DNA of 27,865 nucleotides from Paramecium tetraurelia (Eukaryota): positions 500,728 through 528,592 of the forward strand of contig CT868219.1 of the NCBI GenBank assembly GCA_000165425.1. Direction: 5' to 3'. This document shows positions 7,472 to 24,500 of this stretch, piece after piece. The position numbers and the translations under genes were made by a program. How positions within the stretch are numbered: the stretch's first letter is position 1; every line of letters begins with the position of its first letter. The notes below the pieces were generated by a model. The model made no database searches and was not told where the DNA came from. It worked only from the letters and a program-made list of their open reading frames with translations.

Positions 7472-10333
7472 ATGAAAAGTAAACATGGATAAGCTCAATT
7501 AATAAACAAGTAAATTATGGGAGTGGGTGGAAATGGTGCTTTAGCTACACAAGTCATAAAAACAAAAAAGAGAGAATTCTAATATCAGCAAATCGATTAG
7601 TTACAGCAAAAGAAAAATTAGATTTTACAGCCCAACCAATAGAACAAGAAAGAGATTGCTGCTACGAAAATATTTAGATTTTTGTATAAAATTTATAAAT
7701 AGTATTATTTTAATAATCATTATTTAAGAAAAGAGAAATAACATCGGTATCGAAATTTTGTAATTGAAGAGTTGATAAATACCGAAAGAAATTATTTAAA
7801 TGATTTGAAATTATTAATTGTCATCTAAAGTTAAGTTAAACAATGGCTAAACAAACAATAAATTGAAATAATATTTAATAATCTCCAATAATTGTATGAA
7901 TTAAATAGCTCTTTTCTTTAAGATTTAGAAGGGTTTCTTCCTTATAACAGATCCAAATTATTAGGTCCAATAATCAAAGGATTAGCTCCTTTTTTTAAAG
8001 TGTATTTCCCATATTATGAAGGATTCAATAAATCTATGGCAACTCTTAAATAATGCATAAATGATAAAGAAGACTTCAGAAAATTTCTAAAAAATATGTC
8101 CTCAATCAAAGACTATAATAATTAAGATATTGACAGTTTTTTAATTAAGCCTGTTTAAAGGATACCCAAATACAATCTCCTCTTAGAAGACTTAATAAAA
8201 CATACTGACAAAATTCATCCTGATTATAAAAATTTATGCGAGAGTTTAGAACTTTTTAAAAATATAAACGATGATAACAACAAAAATATGGATAAATTTT
8301 TATCCAGTAAATTGTTTGATATGGAGAAATGGTTTGGAAATAAACTAAGCTAGAAATTAGTAGATACTAAAAGAAAATACATCACAGAACTTTTAACATC
8401 AATTTTAGATCAAACTAATAAAGTCATCATTGTGACTGCTTTTATTCTTAGTGATTTAATCATTATTGGAGAAAGATAGGAAAATCAATACCAATATATA
8501 TAGAGTGTATTTTTAGATGAACAAAGTGGATGTTTAGATGTAGAAAATTAATAACACCTTTAAAATATTTACATCTTATAGGGTATGAGAGGGTAATCAA
8601 TTACATTTATAGAACAGACACCAAATGATAAAATTGAAAAAATGGCTAAGTTACAAAAAATAATTCAAGAATGCAAAGAGAAATCAAAATATACCTTTTA
8701 AAGGCAAACAATTCGGGCAGGGTCTGAAATAAAGGTATAATTAAATAAGATTAAAGTGACTGTGTTAGGTCTTGATGAAAGACATGAAAATTTGAGTAGT
8801 TATAAAGTATATATAATTGAAGTTGGCATCGAAGAGGTTTTTTAGAAATTATTTTTAAGATTTAGTTAATGTATTAAAATTTAGGATTATATTAAAAAGA
8901 AATACCCAACGACCTAATTAAATTTCTTAAAATAAAATACAACTTTGAGTTTATTGAATGATTAAAAGGAAATTGAATCAAGGATGATCGCGATTCCTCT
9001 TTTTGTTTAATCTGTTCTAATATCTGATATTACAAGACAGAATCCATAAATTTTGAAGGACCTAGGATTACCTGAGAATTTTTATGATTTGCCATCTGAG
9101 GCTGATAATTTTAGGAATCAAAGAACAGGCAATCAAAAGGCACCTGATAGATTCAATTATGTGACTCCTACTAGAACACTGATTAAGACATTTGACTATG
9201 GAAATGATTAATAATCTCTTTAGAGTAATTAATGCAATCGTAGATTATTAAGCGCCTCCTCGATGATGAGTAGAAATATTACTTTAGTAGAAGAAAAAAA
9301 AAAGTAAAAAGAAAAGGATGCTATTTCAATCATAGTAAATCATGCTATACCTAAAGAAAAGCCTTGGGAATTTAATGTTAAAAATAATACTAAAGTGTTG
9401 CACGTATTAGACTAGATTTAGAAGGTAATGTAATTGCAATAAATATATGACTTTAAATTATATATTTATGACAATAAATCTAGAGTGAAAATATTGTAAA
9501 ATGATGAAAACATATGTGATTTATTTGGGGATAGCTTTATTTTTGCAAAAAAAAAGAAAGAGCTTTGGTTTAAAAAGCTCTTGTATTAAGATATAGAATA
9601 TGAGAAGACCTTGTTATAGGCTGATAGTGCTAGGATGAAACTTTTATATTACTAATTAGTTAAGGACATCTAAATTTCTACATTACCATTTCCAACTTAA
9701 AATTAATATATTAAATTAGCTGCCATTCATTTGTATTTATAGAACTGCAATCTCTCTTATAATGTCATACAATAAATCATCCCATCATCCATTTTATAAC
9801 TTAAGTAAAGAGAGTATTGGAATTGTGTTGTAACCTAAGAATTCAAGGAATTCAAGTCAGGTATTTAAAATACTTAATCCACACTAATTCAAATCAATGA
9901 AACTGAAGATATTGCAAAAGCTAAATCAAAAGGCATTTTTTCATCAATCATTCAATCTAATCAAAATCAATTTTCCTAAATTGAGAATGTTAATGTTGAT
10001 TCAACAAAAGTAATGATTCAGTTTATTTAAGAATGTTTGAAAAACGAATTTTGCATTTAATAATTATTTTCAATTGTTTGCAAAGAAACTTTGACTTTAT
10101 TTGGCGAATAAAACTTATTTCTGGGTATTGGTTATCATGGAATTCGACTCTATAGTAGCTCAAAGGATAGAATATGGGAAAAAATCGATAAACCACAATC
10201 TTTCAATGTTTTCCCAGGATCTATCGAAATTGGATTTAAAGGTAGGAAGCTTAAGTTTGAAACAAATTAAGGATTTCAAATCTAATCTTTGTTTGATGAA
10301 TATTAAGCAATCAAATCTTAGAATTAAGAATGA
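7472..10333 (+). CDS. RhoGEF (DH-PH) protein with an IQ-like motif, a PX domain and a C-terminal FERM-like domain, ~950 aa
   Basis: DH signatures RNFVIEELINTERNYLNDL and FLIKPVQRIPKYNLLLEDLIKHTDKIHPDY; PX-like YKVYIIEV...LRFSQ; FERM-like ELWFKKLLY...KLLYYQLVKDI...KLAAIHL...LKFETNQGFQIQSLFDEY. TGA at 10331-10333; optional 27-nt intron near 7702. Confidence 0.88.
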
Positions 10334-10405: not shown

Positions 10406-11840
10406 ATGAAGCAAAATGAAAATATCGAAGATGAATCTGAAGATAAGTATGAAGTAAAAAGGGATATATTAGATAATTATATGTACCATTATTTCCTATG
10501 AGAAAAAAACCGTCATCAGGATCTAGTCAAATATCTTCACAATCCACATCATAATCAACTTAAATGCTTACCTAATATAGAAGTATGTAAGATTCAAACG
10601 AGAAAAGAGAATTAGAAGCTACAATAATAAAAGAACTCATGAAAGATAAACGATCATCTGAATTCTATGCTGTTCAAGAAAATTGGATTTCATAATATAA
10701 ATAATATTTATATCAAAATGGAGAAAGACCAGGAATTTTAGATAATAATAATTGTACTTAATACATAATTGTGAATGAGGCAGTTTGGATTTTTTTTAAA
10801 TAAGAATATAAAGCTCATCCAGAGATTATTTGCAGATAAAAACATTCAAGAACAAATGATAAAAGATCAAAAACAGTAGAACCTACTATAAATCGTTAAT
10901 CCTGCTCTAATTCTTAATCCAATTATGAGTTGCCTCTGATAGGGATGAAAAATGATTCTTATTATTGTTATATGCATTCTGGATTACAATCCCTCTTAAG
11001 TATAGCTGATCTGAATTATTTTATAATCAAATACATCTAAAGGATAAATAAATAATAACTAATAGACAAAAAAAAGGTAAATGGAGTTTCATTTACTTGG
11101 GCTTATTTCGAATTAATTGAATAAATCAAAGCAAGTACTATTCCTATTAAAATTAACACTATTAAAACTCTGATCATAAGTTAATTTCATCCAAAAAACC
11201 AGCACGATTGTCACGAATTCTTACTATATTTATTAGGACATATTGAAGATGAAATATTAAATTTCAACAAGGAAACTAAATCAACTTATATAAACTTTGT
11301 AGAGTAGATCTTTAAAGGTAGCAAACTTTATATTTAATAGGAAAGCTTTAGACAAACATTATATGTCAAAATTGTAAAAATAAAGTAAAGTAAATTGAGC
11401 CATTCCTCACTTTATCATTAGCCATTTCTCAATCCAAAAGTCTTGAATAATGTCTTGAAGAATTTCTAAAAGAAGAAACTCTCAAAGATTATAAGTGTAC
11501 AAAATGTCAGTCAACTTGCATAAAGAGCCTTCAAATTGTTTCTATTCCATCAATACTAGTATTACACCTGAAGCGATTTTAATTTTTACCCCAATGCCAT
11601 AAAAACAACAAAACAATAACATATCCTATTGATATCCTAAATTTTGGCAATAAAACTTATAGACTCAGAGCAGTTATTGTTCACACTGGGAATTTATAAT
11701 AAGGTCATTATTTCACATTTGCAAAAAGATATCACTAATGGTTTCTTTTTAACGATGAGACTGTGAAAGCAGTTACAAAAAAATAAGTACTTATGCAAGC
11801 AGCATATATCCTCTTTTACTAAATTAATGAGAATCCATGA
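10406..11840 (+). CDS. Ubiquitin-specific protease (peptidase C19) with DUSP-like N-terminal domain, 461 aa
   Basis: Cys box GMKNDSYYCYMHSGLQ, QHDCHEFL, zinc-ribbon CQNC/CTKC, LVLHLKRF and His box VIVHTGNLQQGHYF...WFLFNDETV...AYILFY. DUSP-like YIIVNEAVWIFFKQEY. Introns of 26 and 23 nt. Confidence 0.92.
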
Positions 11841-12366: not shown

Positions 12367-12843
12367 NNNNNNNNNNNNNNNNNNNNNNNNNNNNNNNNNN
12401 NNNNNNNNNNNNNNNNNNNNNNNNNNNNNNNNNNNNNNNNNNNNNNNNNNNNNNNNNNNNNNNNNNNNNNNNNNNNNNNNNNNNNNNNNNNNNNNNNNNN
12501 NNNNNNNNNNNNNNNNNNNNNNNNNNNNNNNNNNNNNNNNNNNNNNNNNNNNNNNNNNNNNNNNNNNNNNNNNNNNNNNNNNNNNNNNNNNNNNNNNNNN
12601 NNNNNNNNNNNNNNNNNNNNNNNNNNNNNNNNNNNNNNNNNNNNNNNNNNNNNNNNNNNNNNNNNNNNNNNNNNNNNNNNNNNNNNNNNNNNNNNNNNNN
12701 NNNNNNNNNNNNNNNNNNNNNNNNNNNNNNNNNNNNNNNNNNNNNNNNNNNNNNNNNNNNNNNNNNNNNNNNNNNNNNNNNNNNNNNNNNNNNNNNNNNN
12801 NNNNNNNNNNNNNNNNNNNNNNNNNNNNNNNNNNNNNNNNNNN
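12367..12843. other. Assembly gap (477 N)
   Basis: Run of N. Confidence 1.
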
Positions 12844-13419: not shown

Positions 13420-14430
13420 AGCAATCATTTCTAATTTTAATCTTCCTATCCATCTTTCCTTCCAAAGGTTTTTTCAAGGTATAATTTTGTTAATCTGCCT
13501 CTATTTGTTTAATTTTGGATGAATAATCTCTTTGTATTTGTTTTCTTTCAATCCAATTCTTTTTTTTAGTAATATATTAAGATATATACTGAATTTATCC
13601 TTGAGAAAAGATCTTAATATTGTAGTACTTATCAGGTTAATGTTTTTAAATTCTACCGCAATTCTTTTGTTAAATAGGAAGCGTCAACAACTCTTCAATT
13701 ATTTCATTTTTTTAACTGACTTCGATAAAACTCTTATTTATTCTTCATCTACATTTGGAACATAGATTTATCGAAAAGAATAACAAGTATTTAATCCGAA
13801 GCTATTATTACAAAGTAAGTTTGGCAAATACTTGCCTTAAAGTAGTAAATTAAAGTAGACGGATTCTAAAGAAGGAATAAATAGATCAGCACCTGATCAG
13901 GAGATCTTAAAATAGTCTTCTTCTTCTAAAAAATTATTTTACATTTTTTAAATAATTATTCTTTAATTATCTGATAAGAGTATGAAATTTAACAATTTAT
14001 AAGGAAAATTTTGAAATATAAAAATTGATTTTAGCAAAGTCATATATGTATTTTTGAGTTAAAGATATATATTTGAAGAAATTTGATTAAAATAATTTAT
14101 TGTATTTTTCATATGGCTACAAATACTTAACCAAGTAATTTCAATTGCAAATGTTGTAAAGGAATTGAGAAGCGCATGAATTATTTAATTTTTATAAATA
14201 TTAACCGATGCTATTCAGACATTATGATTTTTGCTTAAAAATTAAACAAAGGACTTCAATTGAAATGTATTAACTTAATAATACCGAAATCAACCCAACG
14301 CCATTGAAAGAAAGCAAGCTATTGATATAATCAATTGTTGAGCGTAAGTAATCAGAAATAAAAACATTCAAGAGCTTTTCACATCTTACAACTACTTTTA
14401 ACAATATAAATAATATAAATGAGAATCTAA
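13420..14430 (-). pseudogene. Probable degenerate gene remnant
   Basis: Long, nearly open minus-strand frames (e.g. ...FLEEEDYFKIS*SGADLFIPSLESVYF...) are broken by scattered TGAs and frame changes. No family recognised; boundaries approximate. Confidence 0.3.
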
Positions 14431-14502
14431 TTTATATAATGAATGTTTGTAATTTTGAAAAAATGATTCTCATAAATAGGAATTTAAAAAAACAAAATAT
14501 AT

Positions 14503-17500
14503 TCAAATAAGTTAACAGCAACTAGAATCTACTCTTTCAGTATTATGACTATTATTTTTCCTAATATCTATTACTTATTTTTTCTGGGGTTGAATTGCAT
14601 CTTAAATTACAATTCTAAATTTTTTGGTATTTTGTTATGTTAAAATTGCATCACTATTAGATTCTAAATATCTTAAGATTCTCAAAGAATCCTAAATTCC
14701 TCTTTTCCAATATTCGGACTCAGAGTTTGTCTCATAGTTACTCTCTAGAATTGATAATTTAACAATATAAGGACTTAATGCACCTTATTCAAAATCATCA
14801 TTATTATGGGGGTTTTGCATTTTAGCAAGTGCTATAGCTGCAAATTGAATTTCTCTCTCTTATTCAGAAGGAGAAACAAAAAATTTTTATTAAATTTTGT
14901 TTAGTGCTTACATTCTAATTTGAAACTTATTTTCTTTTGCTTTTTCAACCACATAATCTAATGCTGCATTTATAGCATTGAATGTTGTTCCTATAATTGG
15001 TACAGATCCCATGATAAATGAACCAGTGCTTGACATAGTTTTTAGAAAGTCAGCCACTTTTTCAGAATTACTTTCTATCATAGCATCTCTGTTTATTGTA
15101 AATAGATTAGTTGACATTAATTGCATTGCATGCAAATAATTATATAAGCGCCAAAATAAGGATTTATAATATAAAAATTATTAAAAGTTCTCTGGTTTCT
15201 TTAAAATATTTAATTCTTCTTCTAATTAGTAAGAATCTTATTCCTATAATTTCTAAACCTTAGATTCTAATTCTAAAATTTTTTCTTTTGATACCTTTGA
15301 CTCTTTTTCTAACTTATCATATAATGCTTTTACATCTTATTCTATTTTAAATAAGAAATCCAATATTTATTATTATTAATCCTTATTAATTTATTCATTA
15401 GTTGGTTTCATACCACTAGCCGCTTATTCTTAAATCTTATTGATTTCTAATAAAAATGCTTATTCTTATTATTAGTTAATTGAGTTATTTTTTGCTAATT
15501 GAGAAACATTGTTTTTTGCTATTTAAAATTGACTGTCAATTTCAGAAATCAACTTTAATTTACTTTAAATAAATCTAATATTTGCAGGTGAAAGATTTCT
15601 ACATTTGAATTTTGAATCAATAATTTATTCCAAGCAGCCTTAGGCTAATGAAAAAAAATTTTTAGCTTTAATGTAATCCTTTTGATGATAGTATAAACTA
15701 CCAAGATTAGTAAGATATAATGGATTCAAAGGATTTATTTCTATGGCCTTATTATAATCTTTGATAGCTAATTCTATTTTACCATCATTCATATACAAAT
15801 TACCTAGATATGTTGAATAATTAAACCTCTAGAATTATAAGTATCAGAATGAGCTTAATTTCGTTCTAATACTAGCATATAATCTTTTAGAGCCTTTTCT
15901 TTTTACCCCAAATTATAATATAAATTACCTAGATGTTTTTAACAATTATACCTCTATTATAAAGAGAGTTGACATATTTTGGGTTGAGATCGGTAGCCTT
16001 ATTATAGTCTTTAAATGCTTCATCCATTTTATTCAACTCTTTAAACAAAATGCCTGAACTAGATTAACTTCTTACCTCGACTATTATAAGCCTCTACATT
16101 TTAATTGTTAAGTTCAATAGCCTTATTAAAATCATTAAGGGCCTCTTGATTTCTCTCTTGTTTTCTAAATAAAACCCCTATTTTGATTGAGTAAATTAAA
16201 ACCTCTGTTACAATATTTATTGGAGCTTTAAGGATCAAGTAAAATAGACTTATTATAATCATTAAGGGCTTCTTAATCTAAGCCTTAATCGCTGAAAAGA
16301 TTAGCTAGGGTTATAACTGTAAATTAACCTCGATTATTATATGTGTTAGAATTATTAGGGTCTAATAAAAGAGATGTATTGAAATCAATCATTGCTTCTT
16401 TATCCTTTTCCAAATCATGGTAGATGTTACCTAAAAGAGTTTGGGTTAATTGTACCTCTGCTATTAAAGGCCTAGGCATTTTTAGGATCCAGTTCAATTA
16501 TTTTATCTAAATCATTCAACGCTTCTTAATATTTTTTTTATTTTTGATATAGCAATGCTTTGAATGATAATATAGCATACCTCTATTAAAATAAGCATTA
16601 ATGAATTGAGGGTCAAGATCAATAGCTTGTTGATAATCATTGAAGGCTTTCTCAGTTTGTCCCATTTTCTCCATTAAATCAGCTAAAAATACAAATCCAT
16701 AAAACCTCTGCACTTAAAGAGCTTAGCATCCTTAGCATTTAACTCAATTGTCTTATTAAAACTCTTTAAGGCATCCTCAATCTTTCCAAGTTCATCTAGT
16801 AAAATTCCTAGAATAAATATAAATAATGCCTCTATTATAATATGCACTTTAATAAGAAGGGTCTAATCCTATTGCATTATTGTAATCTTATATTGCTTTC
16901 TCTTTTTAACCTACTTCATCAAGTAAAATAGCTTTAATAACTTTGGTGAAATTAACCTCTATTGTAGTATGCTTCAACATTAGGATGTATTTATAGCATT
17001 TTATTGTATGAATTTAAGGCTTCTTCTTTCCTTCCAAGTTTTCTCAGAATGATTGCTTTGTAAAATTTGATTAAATACCTTGATTAAAGTAAGCATTTTT
17101 ATTTTCTGGGTCTAGTTATATAACCTACTAATAACTTAATAGAGCATTCTCTTCTTGTCCCAATTCTGTTAACAATAATGCTAAGCACAATTTAATAATC
17201 ACAATACCTTTATTATAGTGAGCATCCTTATTCGAAGGGTTTAATTCAATTGATTTAGTAAAATCCTATAAAGACTAAATTTTATTTTTCTCCATTAGAA
17301 GAAATCCTCTCCTAAAATAAGGATTGGCATTATTGGGATTTAGATCGATTAATTTATTGTAACAATTAATTGCCTCATCATTTCTACCAAGTTTTTTTAA
17401 TAAAATGGCTGGTCTATCAAATGACAAATACCTTAATTAGAATAAGCATCTTGTTCTTGTGGTTTAATCTCAATTATTTTCTAATAACTATTTATTGCAT

Positions 17501-18345
17501 CTTCATCTCTTCCCAAAGTATTTAAAATAATGGCTTGCTTTAGCTAAACGATTACCTAAATTATTGTAGGCATTCGCATCATTAGGATTTAAGCTAAGAA
17601 CCGTGTCATAATCTTTAACAGCATCTTCTAATTTGCCTAACTTATTTAAAGTCATTGCTAATAATAGATATAAATTAACCTCTATTAAAGTAGCAGTTTT
17701 CATGATTTGGATTGAGCTGGATTACGTTATTGTAATCTTTTAAAGATTCTTCATTATTGCCCAAATTTGAATTAATGATACCTATTTATAACGTCTTAAT
17801 TGTAAACCTCTTTGATAGTAGGCATTTATATATGTAGAATCTAATTCTATTACTTTATTTAAATCTTTAACAGCTTCTTCATTCTTTCCTAATTTGTATA
17901 AAGCAATTGATTTGTTGTAATATGCATTTACATAGTTTGAATCGATTTATATTACCTTTTAATAATCTTTTATAGCTTCTTCATTCTTATTTAAATCCAA
18001 TAATAAATTTGCTATAAATATCATGTATTCTTACCTCTATTTTAATAAGATTGGATTAAATTAGAATCAAGCTCGATAGCCTTGTAAAATCTTGTAACGC
18101 CTCCTAATTTAAATTTTATTCTTTGTGACACCATCCTATTTATTGCATTTTGATAAATGATACCTCTATACAAATATGCAGAAGCAAGCTTTGGCATTAG
18201 TGTTAGAGCCTTGTTTGCTTCCTAAATTGCTTGGTCAAATTTATTTTCTTTAAATAAATCCTTGAATTAAAAATAATTCTACATAGCTCAAATCTAGATG
18301 TTTGTATGCTTGATTTTGGTTAGCATTATCCTAGTTTTAAATCAT
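14503..18345 (-). CDS. TPR-array protein (~22 repeats, 20 exons) with coiled coil, helical C-terminal domain and CaaX box; one apparent frameshift, so possibly a pseudogene or sequence error
   Basis: Repeats of the form G/A-x6-G-x2-EEAxxDYxKAIELxPxxxxAYxNR; 19 introns of 22-28 nt; last exon 14503-15803 ends ERVDSSCCQLI*. Exon 3 is 101 nt instead of 102. Confidence 0.9.
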
Positions 18346-18595
18346 ATTTTTTGAGTTTTTCAAATTATTATAATCAAATAAAATATTTTTATATATTAGA
18401 TATAATGGCTAACTTTGTTAGAAACTGATTATATTCTATTAATCAAGGTATAATCAAAAAGAACATCTAATTATATCTTTAGTTATAAATATTAATTTGA
18501 ACTAAAAATGTATTATTATAATTAGAATGGTAATGATTTATTTAGATTAACAACAGAGCAAAAGTAAATTAAAAGATTGATAAATTATTATTATT

Positions 18596-19603
18596 ATGGA
18601 TTCAACTAACGTAGAGGAAATCTCATTAGATTATTTATCAAATACATCAGTTGAAAAGGACAGAGGGATCTCATAAACAGTGTAAAATTAACAAGAGTTT
18701 GATAATTTAAATGAAGATTTTTAAAACCTTGAAATTGTGTTGGAAATAAATGATATTATGAATGATATTTGGAACATTAAATTGGCAGAGAAATATGAAA
18801 AATCACTATAATACTATAGAGACTATAAAATAATCATAAATAAGTTGGATAAATATTTCAAAAACAACATCGAAAAAACTAAGATATTTATGTATCTAAC
18901 AATTGATAAATAAATTAAGTACACAGAAGAAATTGCTAATTTTTTTTACTATTTATTAATGAAGGATGTTAAAAGAATTTAGGCTAAACATATTATCAAA
19001 TATCTTGAATATTCAGCTGAAAAGCCAATTAAAGTAGATGCCTTTTAAATTTTTGCAGACAAATGTAATATCAGTCTCAGTGGATATAATTTGAGTGATT
19101 ATAAGAAGAAACCAGAAAAAACTAGATAAATATAAATTTCTTATAAATAACAAGATATTGTATTATTTTAAAAAAATACAATTACTTTACTTGATATTTT
19201 ATATAGAAATTAATATAATGAATTAGGAATTGCAATAGATCTACTTATGATAGGGGATTTTAGTATCGAGGAAGTTGTTAATGCAAAAGGTTAGTAAGTA
19301 GAAAGCTTTCATCAATCATATATCTTTAGGATTTATCAACAAACATTTCTGAATATGCACAAAACCCTTGAATTAAGATCAAAATGGTTTCATAAAGGAA
19401 CTCAATTGTAATTAGATACATTTCATGGACAAAATGTGCACTTAGTATCATTGCCAGAAGGTACTGAAAGGAGATCAAGATTGACATAAAGATTAAATAT
19501 TGCAAAAGGATAAATTTTAAGTAAGGGATATTATTAGAATAATAACGAATCGTTATCTTTCTATTCGTACCTTAAGAACCTTAAAGTAGATTAGATTAAA
19601 TGA
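18596..19603 (+). CDS. Intronless hypothetical protein, 335 aa, with possible degenerate tyrosine-recombinase fold
   Basis: Open ATG..TGA frame of 336 codons. The fold call rests only on motif resemblance (see findings). Confidence 0.75.
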
Positions 19604-20243: not shown

Positions 20244-21812
20244 TCACCATTTGATTTCGCGGATTTGATATCTCTTGAGGTCTTCAACATAGGCTATCAG
20301 GTATTTGCCATCATTAGATAACGTTGCAAAAATCAAGTTTGTATCAAATTTTTATTTTGTAACAATTTGAAGATCGGCATCAGTGATCTTGATAATATAA
20401 ATATGTCGCTTAAATCTCACCAGAAATACTTTCTATAATTAATTATAGGTGATGGGATTAAGATGATAATCAACATATTATTCTTCATCAATATCCAATT
20501 AGAAGGCTTTCTATTAATTATTTTCAAACTTGCCATCTCTTTGCGATTTAAAGAAAAATATTTAATCATTAGTTTTTTAATCGCAGCCCATCCAAACAAA
20601 CTAGTCATCAGAAATGAAAGCAACTTTGGTACCATAAGTTATTTAATTAATTTCTTGAACAAATTTCCATTTTTGAGCTTAGTCATCCTTTGTCCAAATT
20701 AGAATTTTATTGTCTGCTCCACAAGTAACCATCTTATTTTCTTTTTTATTTAAGGTTAGATCAAATATTGTATTTTAATGAGTGTTCTCCAATGAATAAT
20801 TATAAATTAATTAATTTTAATTGAAATCCACGCTCCAAAAATCGATTTCGCAATTAGCACTAGCTAAAATCAATTCTGTTTCATTCTTATTTAAAACTAT
20901 GCAATTAGTCCATTATGCTGGTTTCTTTAAAAATTCCCATTCCTTTTCGTTCTTTTACTTCCAAATTATTAGAGATCCGCATTCTGCTGCAGATATAAAA
21001 CTGTTCTTTACTTTGCTACTAGTCACAATTCGTGTTACAGATAATGCATGACCATTAAGTTTTGCATGCTCTTACATATTTCCTTAATTGAAGTTCCAAA
21101 CTTTAATTTGTTTACCACATCCAGTAAAAAGAAATTCACTATTAAAGGTTAAAGTATAGCAAGGATCTCTTTATTTTACCGTCGTAATCAAATCTAAATT
21201 TAAAGGTTTATTTAATTCATCATAATTCCTTCTATAAAATTCTTGAGTTTTCTTTAGGACATTTTCTGACATTTTCTCTAGGTTAGATGGAAATGTTTCC
21301 AATTTTCTTTTCAATTTTCCAAATTAATTGATTATTTTTGATCTTATTTGCTTTACCTTTTCGTTTTCTTCTGTTGATTAATCCTTTGTTTAAATATAGA
21401 TTTCCAATTCCTCAAAGAAACTGTATTTTAAGTTTTTTTCTCTTTCACTTCTTAAAGAATCTGTTAATTTCTATACTATTTCTTTCATTGATTCAAAATA
21501 ATCATTTATTTTTTCCATAACACTATCAATATTCTTTTCTAAGTTTTTTGCATATTCTAAACTTTCCCCCCCAACAATAATATCTGTGTTTTCACATCTC
21601 TTTTTCTTTTCCTTCTTTCAAAATTTCGGACTACTGCTTCATAATCTTAGACATTAATATTTTGTTGTTCTTGCAAACACAAATTGCAGGCTAGTCTCTA
21701 ATTAGGGGTCTTTGTTTTGATCCATTATAACCTTTTCTGGCTTATTTTTATGCTGTTAGCAAACCAAATCAACAGGCGCATCGGTCATTTAAGATTTAAA
21801 GTCGGTGCTCAT
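20244..21812 (-). CDS. WD40-repeat protein with N-terminal CxxH...CxxC motif and coiled coil; the 5' end needs two cryptic introns or is frameshifted
   Basis: WD repeats FLFTGCGKQIKVWNF, LNGHALSV...GSLIIWK and HQNTIFDL...MVTCGADNKILIW; ends REIKW* at 20244. The unspliced frame has two TGAs near 21620-21642. Confidence 0.8.
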
Positions 21813-23227: not shown

Positions 23228-24500
23228 ATGGGAAATAATTAGGCTAGTAACTCAAAAAAAAGGAAATCTGGAATATCAGCCTCATAATTTGGAGATATAT
23301 TAATTAAAACTGATAAATCATATTATTTCTCTGGCGAAGTCGTAATCGGTATTCTAGGTCCATTTACATATATAGGAAATATCTATTTGAATGTAATTAA
23401 AGATGGATTTCCAGGTTGCGTTGTGTACTTGAGAGTCTCTGGCAAAGAGAAATGTTAATGGACAGAAACAACAACAAACACATCATCAGACTCAGATGGG
23501 AACACAACTGAAAGTACATCTACTTCTACATATACTGGAAAGTCTTATATTTATTAACACAAGTTGGTAATACATAATTTTGAAAGTCCTTCACTCCCAT
23601 TAGGATAATTCGTATTTCCTTTTTAATTTTAACTTTTATCTCATCTTCCTAGTTCATTTTATTAAAATGACGTAGCATAGATTAGTTACAAAGTTAAAGC
23701 AGCTATTTAATCTAAGAAGTCCTCTTTAAATTGTATAATGAGCATTTAAAGATTAATCATAAGAGAACCATTAAGACAAAATACACAACCTTTGACTGGG
23801 AATATGTAGATTCATTCTTAGGATTGCTGCTTTCCAAGTGATGGGGTATTAAATATGTTCTATTTATAGGTTTGTCTCATCAATTGTAGTATAGACAAAC
23901 ATAATTATCTTCCAGGAGATGTAGCGCATTTAGAAATAAATATTGATAATTCGAGTTTAGATGAGCAAATTACTTCAATTTCTATTATTTTTTTGAATAC
24001 TTTGACATTAACTGATGATTCGGGTCGCTAAAAACTCTAAAACTGGATAGTTCAAAAGAATGAGATCTAAGGTGTTGGACCAAGAAGAAAGAGTTAAAAA
24101 AACGTACGGTTTCTTTTACAAAATAATAAATCACCTTAAGAAATATAACCATCAGCTAATGGCCGATTAGTAAATTCAGTGTATTCAATATTGATTAAAG
24201 TTAATCTAGAGTGTAAATTATATGATATTTTTAGCGGATTCATGTTGCTTCAAAGAGGATCCATTAATTACTTTTCAAATATAGATTGTTGCTGCAGTTC
24301 CTTAAAGTACGGATCCAGTTTTAATTGAACCTCCTGATTGGAATCCTTAAGTGTTTTCAATATAAAAAGTCTATCTTACTGATAGAAACAAGTAGACTGG
24401 AAAAATCTTAAATTAAGACGACTAAAATGGATAACATAAAAAAAATGACTGTATTAAAGGGAATTCAGTCCTTGATATCTAATAATAAATGCAGGAATGA
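23228..24500 (+). CDS. Arrestin-domain (alpha-arrestin-like) protein, 399 aa, predicted N-myristoylated
   Basis: MGNNQAS start; YFSGEVVIGNIYLNV, SGKEKCQWTE, PIGQFVFPFQFQLLSHLPSSF...ISYKVKA, IDKHNYLPGD, PSANGRLVNSVY, PPDWNPQ. Introns of 27, 24 and 22 nt. Confidence 0.88.

Follow-up and report, generated by a model that had tools for sequence, protein, structure and literature searches.

Positions 14503..18284 on the minus strand of a 27,865-nucleotide stretch of the Paramecium tetraurelia genome (contig CT868219.1, positions 500,728 to 528,592; the whole stretch is called the window below) hold an intact, weakly expressed nuclear gene whose 1125-residue product is probably a prenylated, lipid-anchored scaffold or tether built on tetratricopeptide repeats (TPRs), its lipidation being predicted. 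When the minus strand is translated with NCBI table 6 (TGA is the sole stop codon of Paramecium), the stop-to-stop frame 15843..14503 encodes 446 residues (the last-exon frame), contains YYKSLFWRLYNYLHAMQLMST and GSFIMGSVPIIGTTFNAINAALDYVVEKAKENKFQIRMQALNKI, and ends in ...VDSSCCQLI followed by the TGA at 14505-14503; the Gln of CQLI is itself encoded by a TAA codon (14514-14512, minus strand). The last exon proper (15803-14503, minus strand) comprises the end of the TPR array, a pair of long helices, a conserved domain of ~200 residues that is entirely helical and the tail SSCCQLI. The preliminary description of this DNA, made from the sequence alone, had reported the SSCCQLI end, several residue strings and the succession of TPRs and helices, all of which are real in the table 6 translation of the minus strand, although the strand was left unstated and the string given as ...NKIL in fact reads ...NKIQQKFF.

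The closest protein in a collection of 5.8 billion proteins is P0001, an unnamed Paramecium octaurelia protein of 704 residues and the orthologue of the window protein, which matches residues 200-446 of the last-exon frame, the region used as query, at 93% identity and shares the SSCCQLI end exactly. Next in similarity are two paralogues, one from P. tetraurelia at 49% identity and one from P. octaurelia at 43%. A phmmer search with the last 232 residues against 1.84 billion cluster representatives returned 59 matches at E<=1e-3, with 20 at <=1e-10 and 6 at <=1e-30. Two of the sequences found, P0035 and P0046, are unrelated repeat proteins that match in 16 and 10 short stretches, and they are excluded from all family counts.

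The cysteine tail and CaaX box

The protein terminates in a low-complexity tail (14506..14583, minus strand), delimited by translation and family comparison, which contains Cys442 (14520-14518) and the CaaX box C-Q-L-I (14517-14506). Cys443 is placed exactly four residues from the C-terminus with the stop codon directly after it, and the tail is disordered in both AlphaFold2 models, that of the C-terminal domain and that of the 446-residue frame. This arrangement recurs in the family, where 26 of 59 proteins end in CxxX, whereas their Cys content predicts 0.67 such endings by chance. The a2 residue is Ile, Leu, Val or Met in 25 of these 26 proteins, and at least one further Cys lies within the preceding 10 residues in 18 of the 26 tails, a role taken by Cys442 in the window protein. 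Polybasic stretches are found among the eight tails that lack an extra Cys, in P0025 (KKIKKSRKCTLI), P0027 (KTKKKSKKCNLI) and P0034 (KGKKEKRNGRCTIF). The orthologue ends in CCQLI and the paralogues at 43-49% identity end in KCNIQ and CCQIQ, while the column of the CaaX Cys is nearly invariant in alignment A6, whose rows were chosen largely among CaaX-bearing members. A Cys at exactly -4, an aliphatic a2 and an extra Cys or basic run constitute the classical two-signal prenylation arrangement of Ras proteins. The CaaX box is, by comparison of the family tails, under strong selection. The earlier suggestion of a CaaX lipid anchor has thus held up, the box being conserved among paralogues. The protein displays no transmembrane-grade segment on the Kyte-Doolittle scale (19-residue window), the highest mean reaching 1.29 at the conserved IMGSVPIIGTTFNAINAAL stretch, and a lipid anchor is thus the only evident membrane attachment.

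The suitability of the box itself as a prenylation substrate is plausible, judged on its residues, and not textbook. According to the entries for these boxes in supplement file 7 of PMC9231725, CQLI is called prenylated by two of four predictors (SVM-ESM-1b and PrePS) and not by FlexPepBind and Freq, whereas the boxes CNIQ and CTLI are called prenylated by all four methods and CQIQ and CIIF by three of four, all predictors having been trained on the yeast farnesyltransferase and not on a ciliate enzyme. The split verdict on CQLI would also suit a soluble TPR adaptor whose terminal Cys box escapes lipidation and serves as a metal or redox Cys cluster or as a degron. Multi-Cys tails such as CPCPYC and CCPCSC could bind metal, and the Cys box is internal in some members. 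However, a Cys fixed at -4, an a2 position that is aliphatic in all tails except one and polybasic tails that replace the extra Cys are features of prenylation rather than of a metal site, and such an adaptor is considered unlikely.

Several observations weigh against a prenylated scaffold encoded by an intact gene. At the C-terminus, the a1 residue of CQLI is non-aliphatic, X is Ile and half of the four predictors call the box not prenylated. A terminal CxxX is lacking in 33 of the 59 family proteins, many of them fragments, and the full-length Paramecium members P0014, P0015, P0024 and P0036 end otherwise. Five distant members (P0040, P0044, P0049, P0059 and P0060) carry an internal CaaX-like box (CEMF, CIVM, CIIF, CQIF and CVLL) with 50-160 residues after it. 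In P0044, P0049 and P0060 the box is followed by a common ..(Y/H)DNP(F/I)(L/I).. stretch and further sequence, and internal boxes of this kind possibly reflect processing, read-through or an added domain. At the level of the gene, the window sequence as given is frameshifted at 18083/18084, the RNA depth is too low for any splice junction, including that of the GC-AG intron described below, and for the 5' end, and the P0001 model spans only the last 704 residues. The lipid-anchor reading of the C-terminus nevertheless appears well supported by the family-wide pattern of the tails.

TPR array, helical stalk and conserved domain

The TPR array occupies 15649..18284 (minus strand) and consists of ~21 units of 34 residues, as defined by Pfam on the open reading frame (ORF) pieces and by the repeat register of the assembled model. 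The minus strand from 18287 to 15788 yields 14 ORF pieces, each of which matches TPR families and no other kind of domain. Within the last-exon frame Pfam locates TPRs at residues 12-65 only (TPR_1 at 46.3 bits, the gathering cut-off being 27.8), and residues 66-446 match nothing at E<=1. Identity between the window and orthologue TPRs amounts to 89.4% over the region covered by P0001, the last 704 residues. The array leads into a conserved linker (15589..15675, minus strand; residues 57-85 of the last-exon frame) with the consensus '...NLSxxNIxxIxxKxxxLxxI' in alignments A5 and A6, and this is followed by two long helices rich in Glu, Lys and Gln, at residues 86-144 and 154-214 (15202..15588, minus strand), in the AlphaFold2 model of the 446-residue frame. 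The predicted local distance difference test score (pLDDT) of that model is 72.7 overall and ~60-80 across the long helices. This stretch, which is 88.8% identical to the orthologue, contains 38% Glu, Lys and Gln, and its heptad score, a crude and uncalibrated measure, peaks at 0.5-0.6. The coiled coil proposed in the preliminary description is retained as a shape, namely that of these two helices. A two-copy complex prediction for orthologue residues 325-704 returned a score of 0.00 with its own fold uncertain and the alignment unused, and it has no bearing on dimerisation.

The remaining part of the protein upstream of the tail (14584..15201, minus strand) is a conserved all-helical domain of ~200 residues, delimited by phmmer, hhalign and AlphaFold2. 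Its sequence is marked by YYKSLFWRLYNY, (I/V)P(I/F)(I/V)G..F..IN.ALD, KE.KF..R and G..D.L.IL.YLE.N, and with 94.7% identity to the orthologue it is conserved better than any other part of the protein. Pfam analysis of the 35 longer matches identifies TPR-type families N-terminal to the domain in 30 proteins and nothing in 4, the last one being a dropped repeat protein. The paralogues range from 445 to 1010 residues and differ in TPR number. The family splits into a Paramecium group and a distant group that originates from metagenome and run assemblies. All clusters with an organism name, seven of the 30 looked up in addition to P0001 and the two paralogues above, belong to Paramecium (octaurelia, tetraurelia, pentaurelia, primaurelia and bursaria). 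The distant group has a Gln content of 3-7% against 8.2% in P0001 and includes uninterrupted proteins of ~1700 residues. An hhalign comparison matches the two groups over 197 columns with a probability of 98.5% and an E-value of 2.7e-15, thus establishing a single conserved domain. P0056 (237 residues, E 1.9e-4), a distant relative with neither TPRs nor a CaaX box, is located on a 1.48-Mb metagenome contig and represents the only hint of the domain beyond small protist contigs.

The AlphaFold2 model of the domain, derived from a 41-row alignment, displays ~11 helices with a pLDDT of 80.5 and a predicted template modelling score (pTM) of 0.78. Confidence is low in the tail and around positions 41-44 and 60-67, the second of these stretches immediately preceding the (I/V)P(I/F)(I/V)G motif. 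Comparison of this model with the PDB by Foldseek gave no match at E<=1e-3 (best E 0.46, TM-score <=0.26), and VIA-align against 48,161 representative chains gave none with Z>=5, the best Z of 4.6 being under the usual level for unrelated helical models. The best match in a viral structure library has an E-value of 0.24, and an Atlas comparison of orthologue residues 473-704 returned chance-level scores only (<=0.80). Similarly, no Pfam family at E<=10 is present in more than one of 18 C-terminal domain sequences (best E 0.02), and nothing in NCBIfam comes close to its cut-off for the domain. Longer relatives were sought by word-index searches, which returned 0 matches and 1 match, the latter being the orthologue, and this counts as weak evidence. 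The C-terminal part of VPS35, the best match in a profile search of PDB sequences (E 0.029, 17 bits), was treated as chance, and the PEX3 chains of two PEX3-PEX19-peptide complexes (3mk4_A and 3ajb_A) were set aside as Foldseek noise (E 0.93 and 2.0). The C-terminal domain is an undescribed helical domain with no detected relative, and no proven new fold is claimed for it.

The preliminary description had likened this domain to the N-terminal four-helix bundle of MLKL and had assembled from it an NLR-like receptor. The domain would then be a membrane-disrupting executioner of the MLKL/HeLo type, with TPRs that sense a ligand and a coil that oligomerises, the whole acting as an NTPase-less immune receptor. 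Some features fit such a design. The domain resembles MLKL, HeLo and RPW8 in being all-helical and plausibly near a membrane, and it adjoins the probable lipid anchor; its most conserved motif, (I/V)P(I/F)(I/V)G..F..IN.ALD, is Gly-rich and hydrophobic and lies partly in a low-confidence loop; the TPR number differs among paralogues; and, as in those STAND/NLR proteins that have TPR arms, the TPR array might be the ligand-binding part. In contrast, the domain has ~11 helices over its ~200 residues instead of the 4-5 of such bundles, is C-terminal rather than N-terminal and, if its CaaX box is functional, would be anchored constitutively. The Foldseek and VIA-align rows, where absence does not rule a fold out, include no chain of the MLKL/HeLo type, the profile search of PDB sequences gave no match to such domains, and the Foldseek entries for Bak and a Bcl-2-like protein are at noise level (E 1.3-1.8, TM-score <=0.22). 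The structural likeness is thus unsupported. The central NACHT or NB-ARC NTPase of STAND/NLR proteins was not found, no NTPase family being detected by Pfam in the last exon, in the 14 upstream ORF pieces or in the 35 family proteins, and this removes the defining feature of an NLR. No PADLOC defence family comes near its cut-off (best E 0.007, in one of six members), the TPRs, at the 89.4% identity given above, show no hypervariability from one orthologue to the other, and the hydrophobicity maximum is 1.29. An executioner of this type is very improbable.

The domain was also supposed to have relatives in Rickettsiales or similar bacterial endosymbionts, from which it would have been acquired, or with which it would have been exchanged, possibly as an effector exploiting host prenylation. 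CaaX-bearing bacterial effectors are known to exist, and distant members of the family are found on metagenome contigs, including the 1.48-Mb contig of P0056. However, two pattern scans of prokaryote genomes (one genome per species, 185,579 species) confirmed no relative among 29 and 110 pattern matches; these scans are pattern-seeded and distant relatives could escape them. A scan of viral contigs likewise gave 321 pattern matches with 0 confirmed, and a metagenome scan with P0033 identified 11 loci that match its TPR part only (query residues 4-323), none of them spanning the C-terminal domain. No NCBIfam family covers the domain and the organism-named clusters are all from Paramecium. The introns of the gene are typical of Paramecium, and TAA and TAG codons for Gln occur all along the domain. 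The claim of bacterial relatives thus found no confirmation, and bacterial exchange retains a very small probability, owing to the limited sensitivity of the scans and the uninspected origin of the distant homologues; it is the least probable of the explanations considered here.

Gene structure and transcription

The coding region extends on the minus strand from the ATG at 18284 to the TGA at 14505-14503 and is interrupted by 17 introns, as defined by spliced alignments to P0001 and to four paralogues. The alignment of P0001 (residues 1-704) covers 16781-14506, is free of frameshifts and contains seven introns, each 22-25 nt long. The four paralogue guides lengthen the TPR array upstream and concur on nine of ten further introns, while the tenth (16829-16808) was placed from a reading of the sequence and not from the guide proteins. 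Proceeding from the 5' end, introns 1-6 lie at 18163-18136, 18034-18012, 17807-17782, 17679-17658, 17555-17534 and 17431-17409, introns 7-12 at 17207-17181, 17078-17056, 16956-16932, 16829-16808, 16705-16683 and 16580-16558, and introns 13-17 at 16455-16431, 16202-16178, 16075-16054, 15951-15929 and 15826-15804, all on the minus strand. All 17 measure 22-28 nt, are in phase 1 and interrupt the 34-residue repeat at the same point, with an exon-plus-intron period of ~125 bp. This uniform phase and position within the TPR unit make it seem likely that the repeat array grew by duplication of exon-plus-intron units. The intron at 16808..16829 (minus strand) starts with GC instead of GT (GC-AG), all others being GT-AG. 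It is required for an open frame, and once it is spliced out '...YYNRG' runs into 'ILLDELGK...' with the TPR register perfectly kept. Since the P0001 model begins just downstream of it (residue 1 corresponds to 16781), the public orthologue model probably lacks ~420 residues at its N-terminal (5') end.

The window lacks one base at 18083..18084, without which the minus-strand frame breaks, as seen both in comparison with an independent DNA contig and with the guide proteins. The contig from run X8 (another study carrying the same organism label; depth 23.3) has an extra A behind 18083 on the plus strand, and over 14400-18400 this is the sole gap relative to the window, with 0 other differing letters. 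Three of the four guide proteins likewise call a frameshift at 18083-18086. With one base added at 18083/18084 the frame is open for 1125 codons with no in-frame TGA, 61 of these being TAA or TAG codons read as Gln, in a window of 25.6% GC. The lack of this base reflects either an error of assembly or a frameshift specific to the strain.

Transcription was examined in two oligo-dT RNA-seq runs, X23 and X24, which place 11 and 39 reads on the gene. The first mate is always on the plus strand, which in most stranded libraries is the strand opposite to the RNA, and the gene thus shows low-level transcription from the minus strand. Read density peaks over 14534-15337, the region of the C-terminal domain, and scattered reads reach 17749; a further run, X18, presumed to be RNA, contributed none. 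The frameshift, the GC start of one intron, the start of the public orthologue model at the equivalent of 16781 and the lack of RNA reads between 17750 and 18400 could together suggest a decaying pseudogene, or a gene confined to the 3' part (from ~16781). Both forms are improbable, however. The missing base is present in an independent contig that shows no other difference over 4 kb, the 1125 codons remain open through 17 introns with the repeat register kept throughout, RNA reads are also found 5' of 16781, the furthest of them in the bin 17616-17749, and identity to the orthologue is 89-95% over the last 704 residues.

The neighbourhood is an ordinary gene-dense macronuclear context. A 335-residue ORF with no Pfam family at E<=1e-3 (18596-19603, plus strand) diverges from the 5' end of the TPR gene, followed by ORFs for a WD40 protein (20244-21518, minus strand) and an arrestin-like protein (23228-24328, plus strand). 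On the 3' side of the TPR gene, a scaffold gap of 477 N (12367-12843) separates it from an ORF for a fragment of a DUSP+UCH ubiquitin hydrolase (10498-11571, plus strand), and an ORF for a RhoGEF with a weak FERM-M match lies at 7472-10333 (plus strand).

Relation to known systems and proposed function

The C-terminus of the window protein resembles that of the Ras CaaX proteins in the Cys at -4, the aliphatic a2, the extra Cys or run of Lys and Arg upstream and the flexible tail that precedes the box. H-Ras and N-Ras use a palmitoylated Cys as the second signal and K-Ras4B a polybasic stretch. In contrast to these proteins, the window protein has no GTPase domain and is a 1125-residue TPR scaffold with a helical domain, whose lipidation is predicted. 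The most likely working analogues are Tom70, Toc64/OEP61 and Fis1, which similarly hold a TPR platform on the cytosolic face of a membrane through a terminal anchor. They do so, however, with transmembrane helices and 3-11 TPRs, whereas the window protein combines ~21 TPRs with a lipid box and an extra domain and has no segment of transmembrane grade. Human Spindly and PEX19, which are farnesylated, offer a further parallel as helical adaptors whose C-terminal CaaX box is needed for recruitment, although there is no homology. The long uninterrupted array of canonical 34-residue TPR_1/TPR_11 units recalls OGT and SPINDLY, but no glycosyltransferase domain is present in any scanned family member (35 proteins, Pfam). 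The automatic UniRef name 'SPINDLY' attached to the paralogue P0019 was rejected as a TPR artefact.

The gene model, the strand of transcription and the conservation of both the domain and the CaaX box are established here; lipidation as such, the target membrane, the protein partners and whatever activity the conserved domain may have are inferred. The CaaX Cys would be prenylated and the neighbouring Cys then palmitoylated, and these lipids would tether the C-terminus to a membrane on its cytosolic side. Here the conserved domain would adjoin the bilayer, and the two E/K/Q-rich helices may form a stalk that holds the TPR array outward. The superhelix of ~21 TPRs would then present a protein-binding platform that captures or organises partner proteins. 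A bolder version, which we regard as improbable, makes the C-terminal domain a new membrane-active module whose (I/V)P(I/F)(I/V)G loop-helix would insert upon TPR ligand binding, resulting in a ciliate-specific, NTPase-less, lipid-anchored sensor-executioner directed, for example, against intracellular bacteria. In a milder form the domain would be a new fold specific for the membrane of one organelle, and it would define a new class of ciliate lipid-anchored tethers.

The prenylated scaffold or tether remains the preferred interpretation, and it places the window protein in a family that joins many consecutive TPRs, a stalk of helices, the conserved domain, which has neither a Pfam assignment nor a detectable structural neighbour, and a CaaX box accompanied by second signals like those of Ras. 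Its members appear in databases under generic names ('unnamed protein product', 'TPR repeat protein') or under names that are TPR artefacts ('SPINDLY', 'PilF'), and the listings and abstract openings returned by literature searches contained no publication on such a family. The analysis also brings corrections, namely the one-base frameshift of the window, the GC-AG intron and the probably 5'-truncated public orthologue model, and it removes an account of immune receptors and gene transfer that was attractive but unsupported. The conserved domain would be a worthwhile subject for structure determination. Few prenylation substrates besides small GTPases are known in ciliates. If the lipid anchor proves true, the members of this family would be large prenylated scaffolds and candidate organisers of the ciliate cortex or of organelle membranes.

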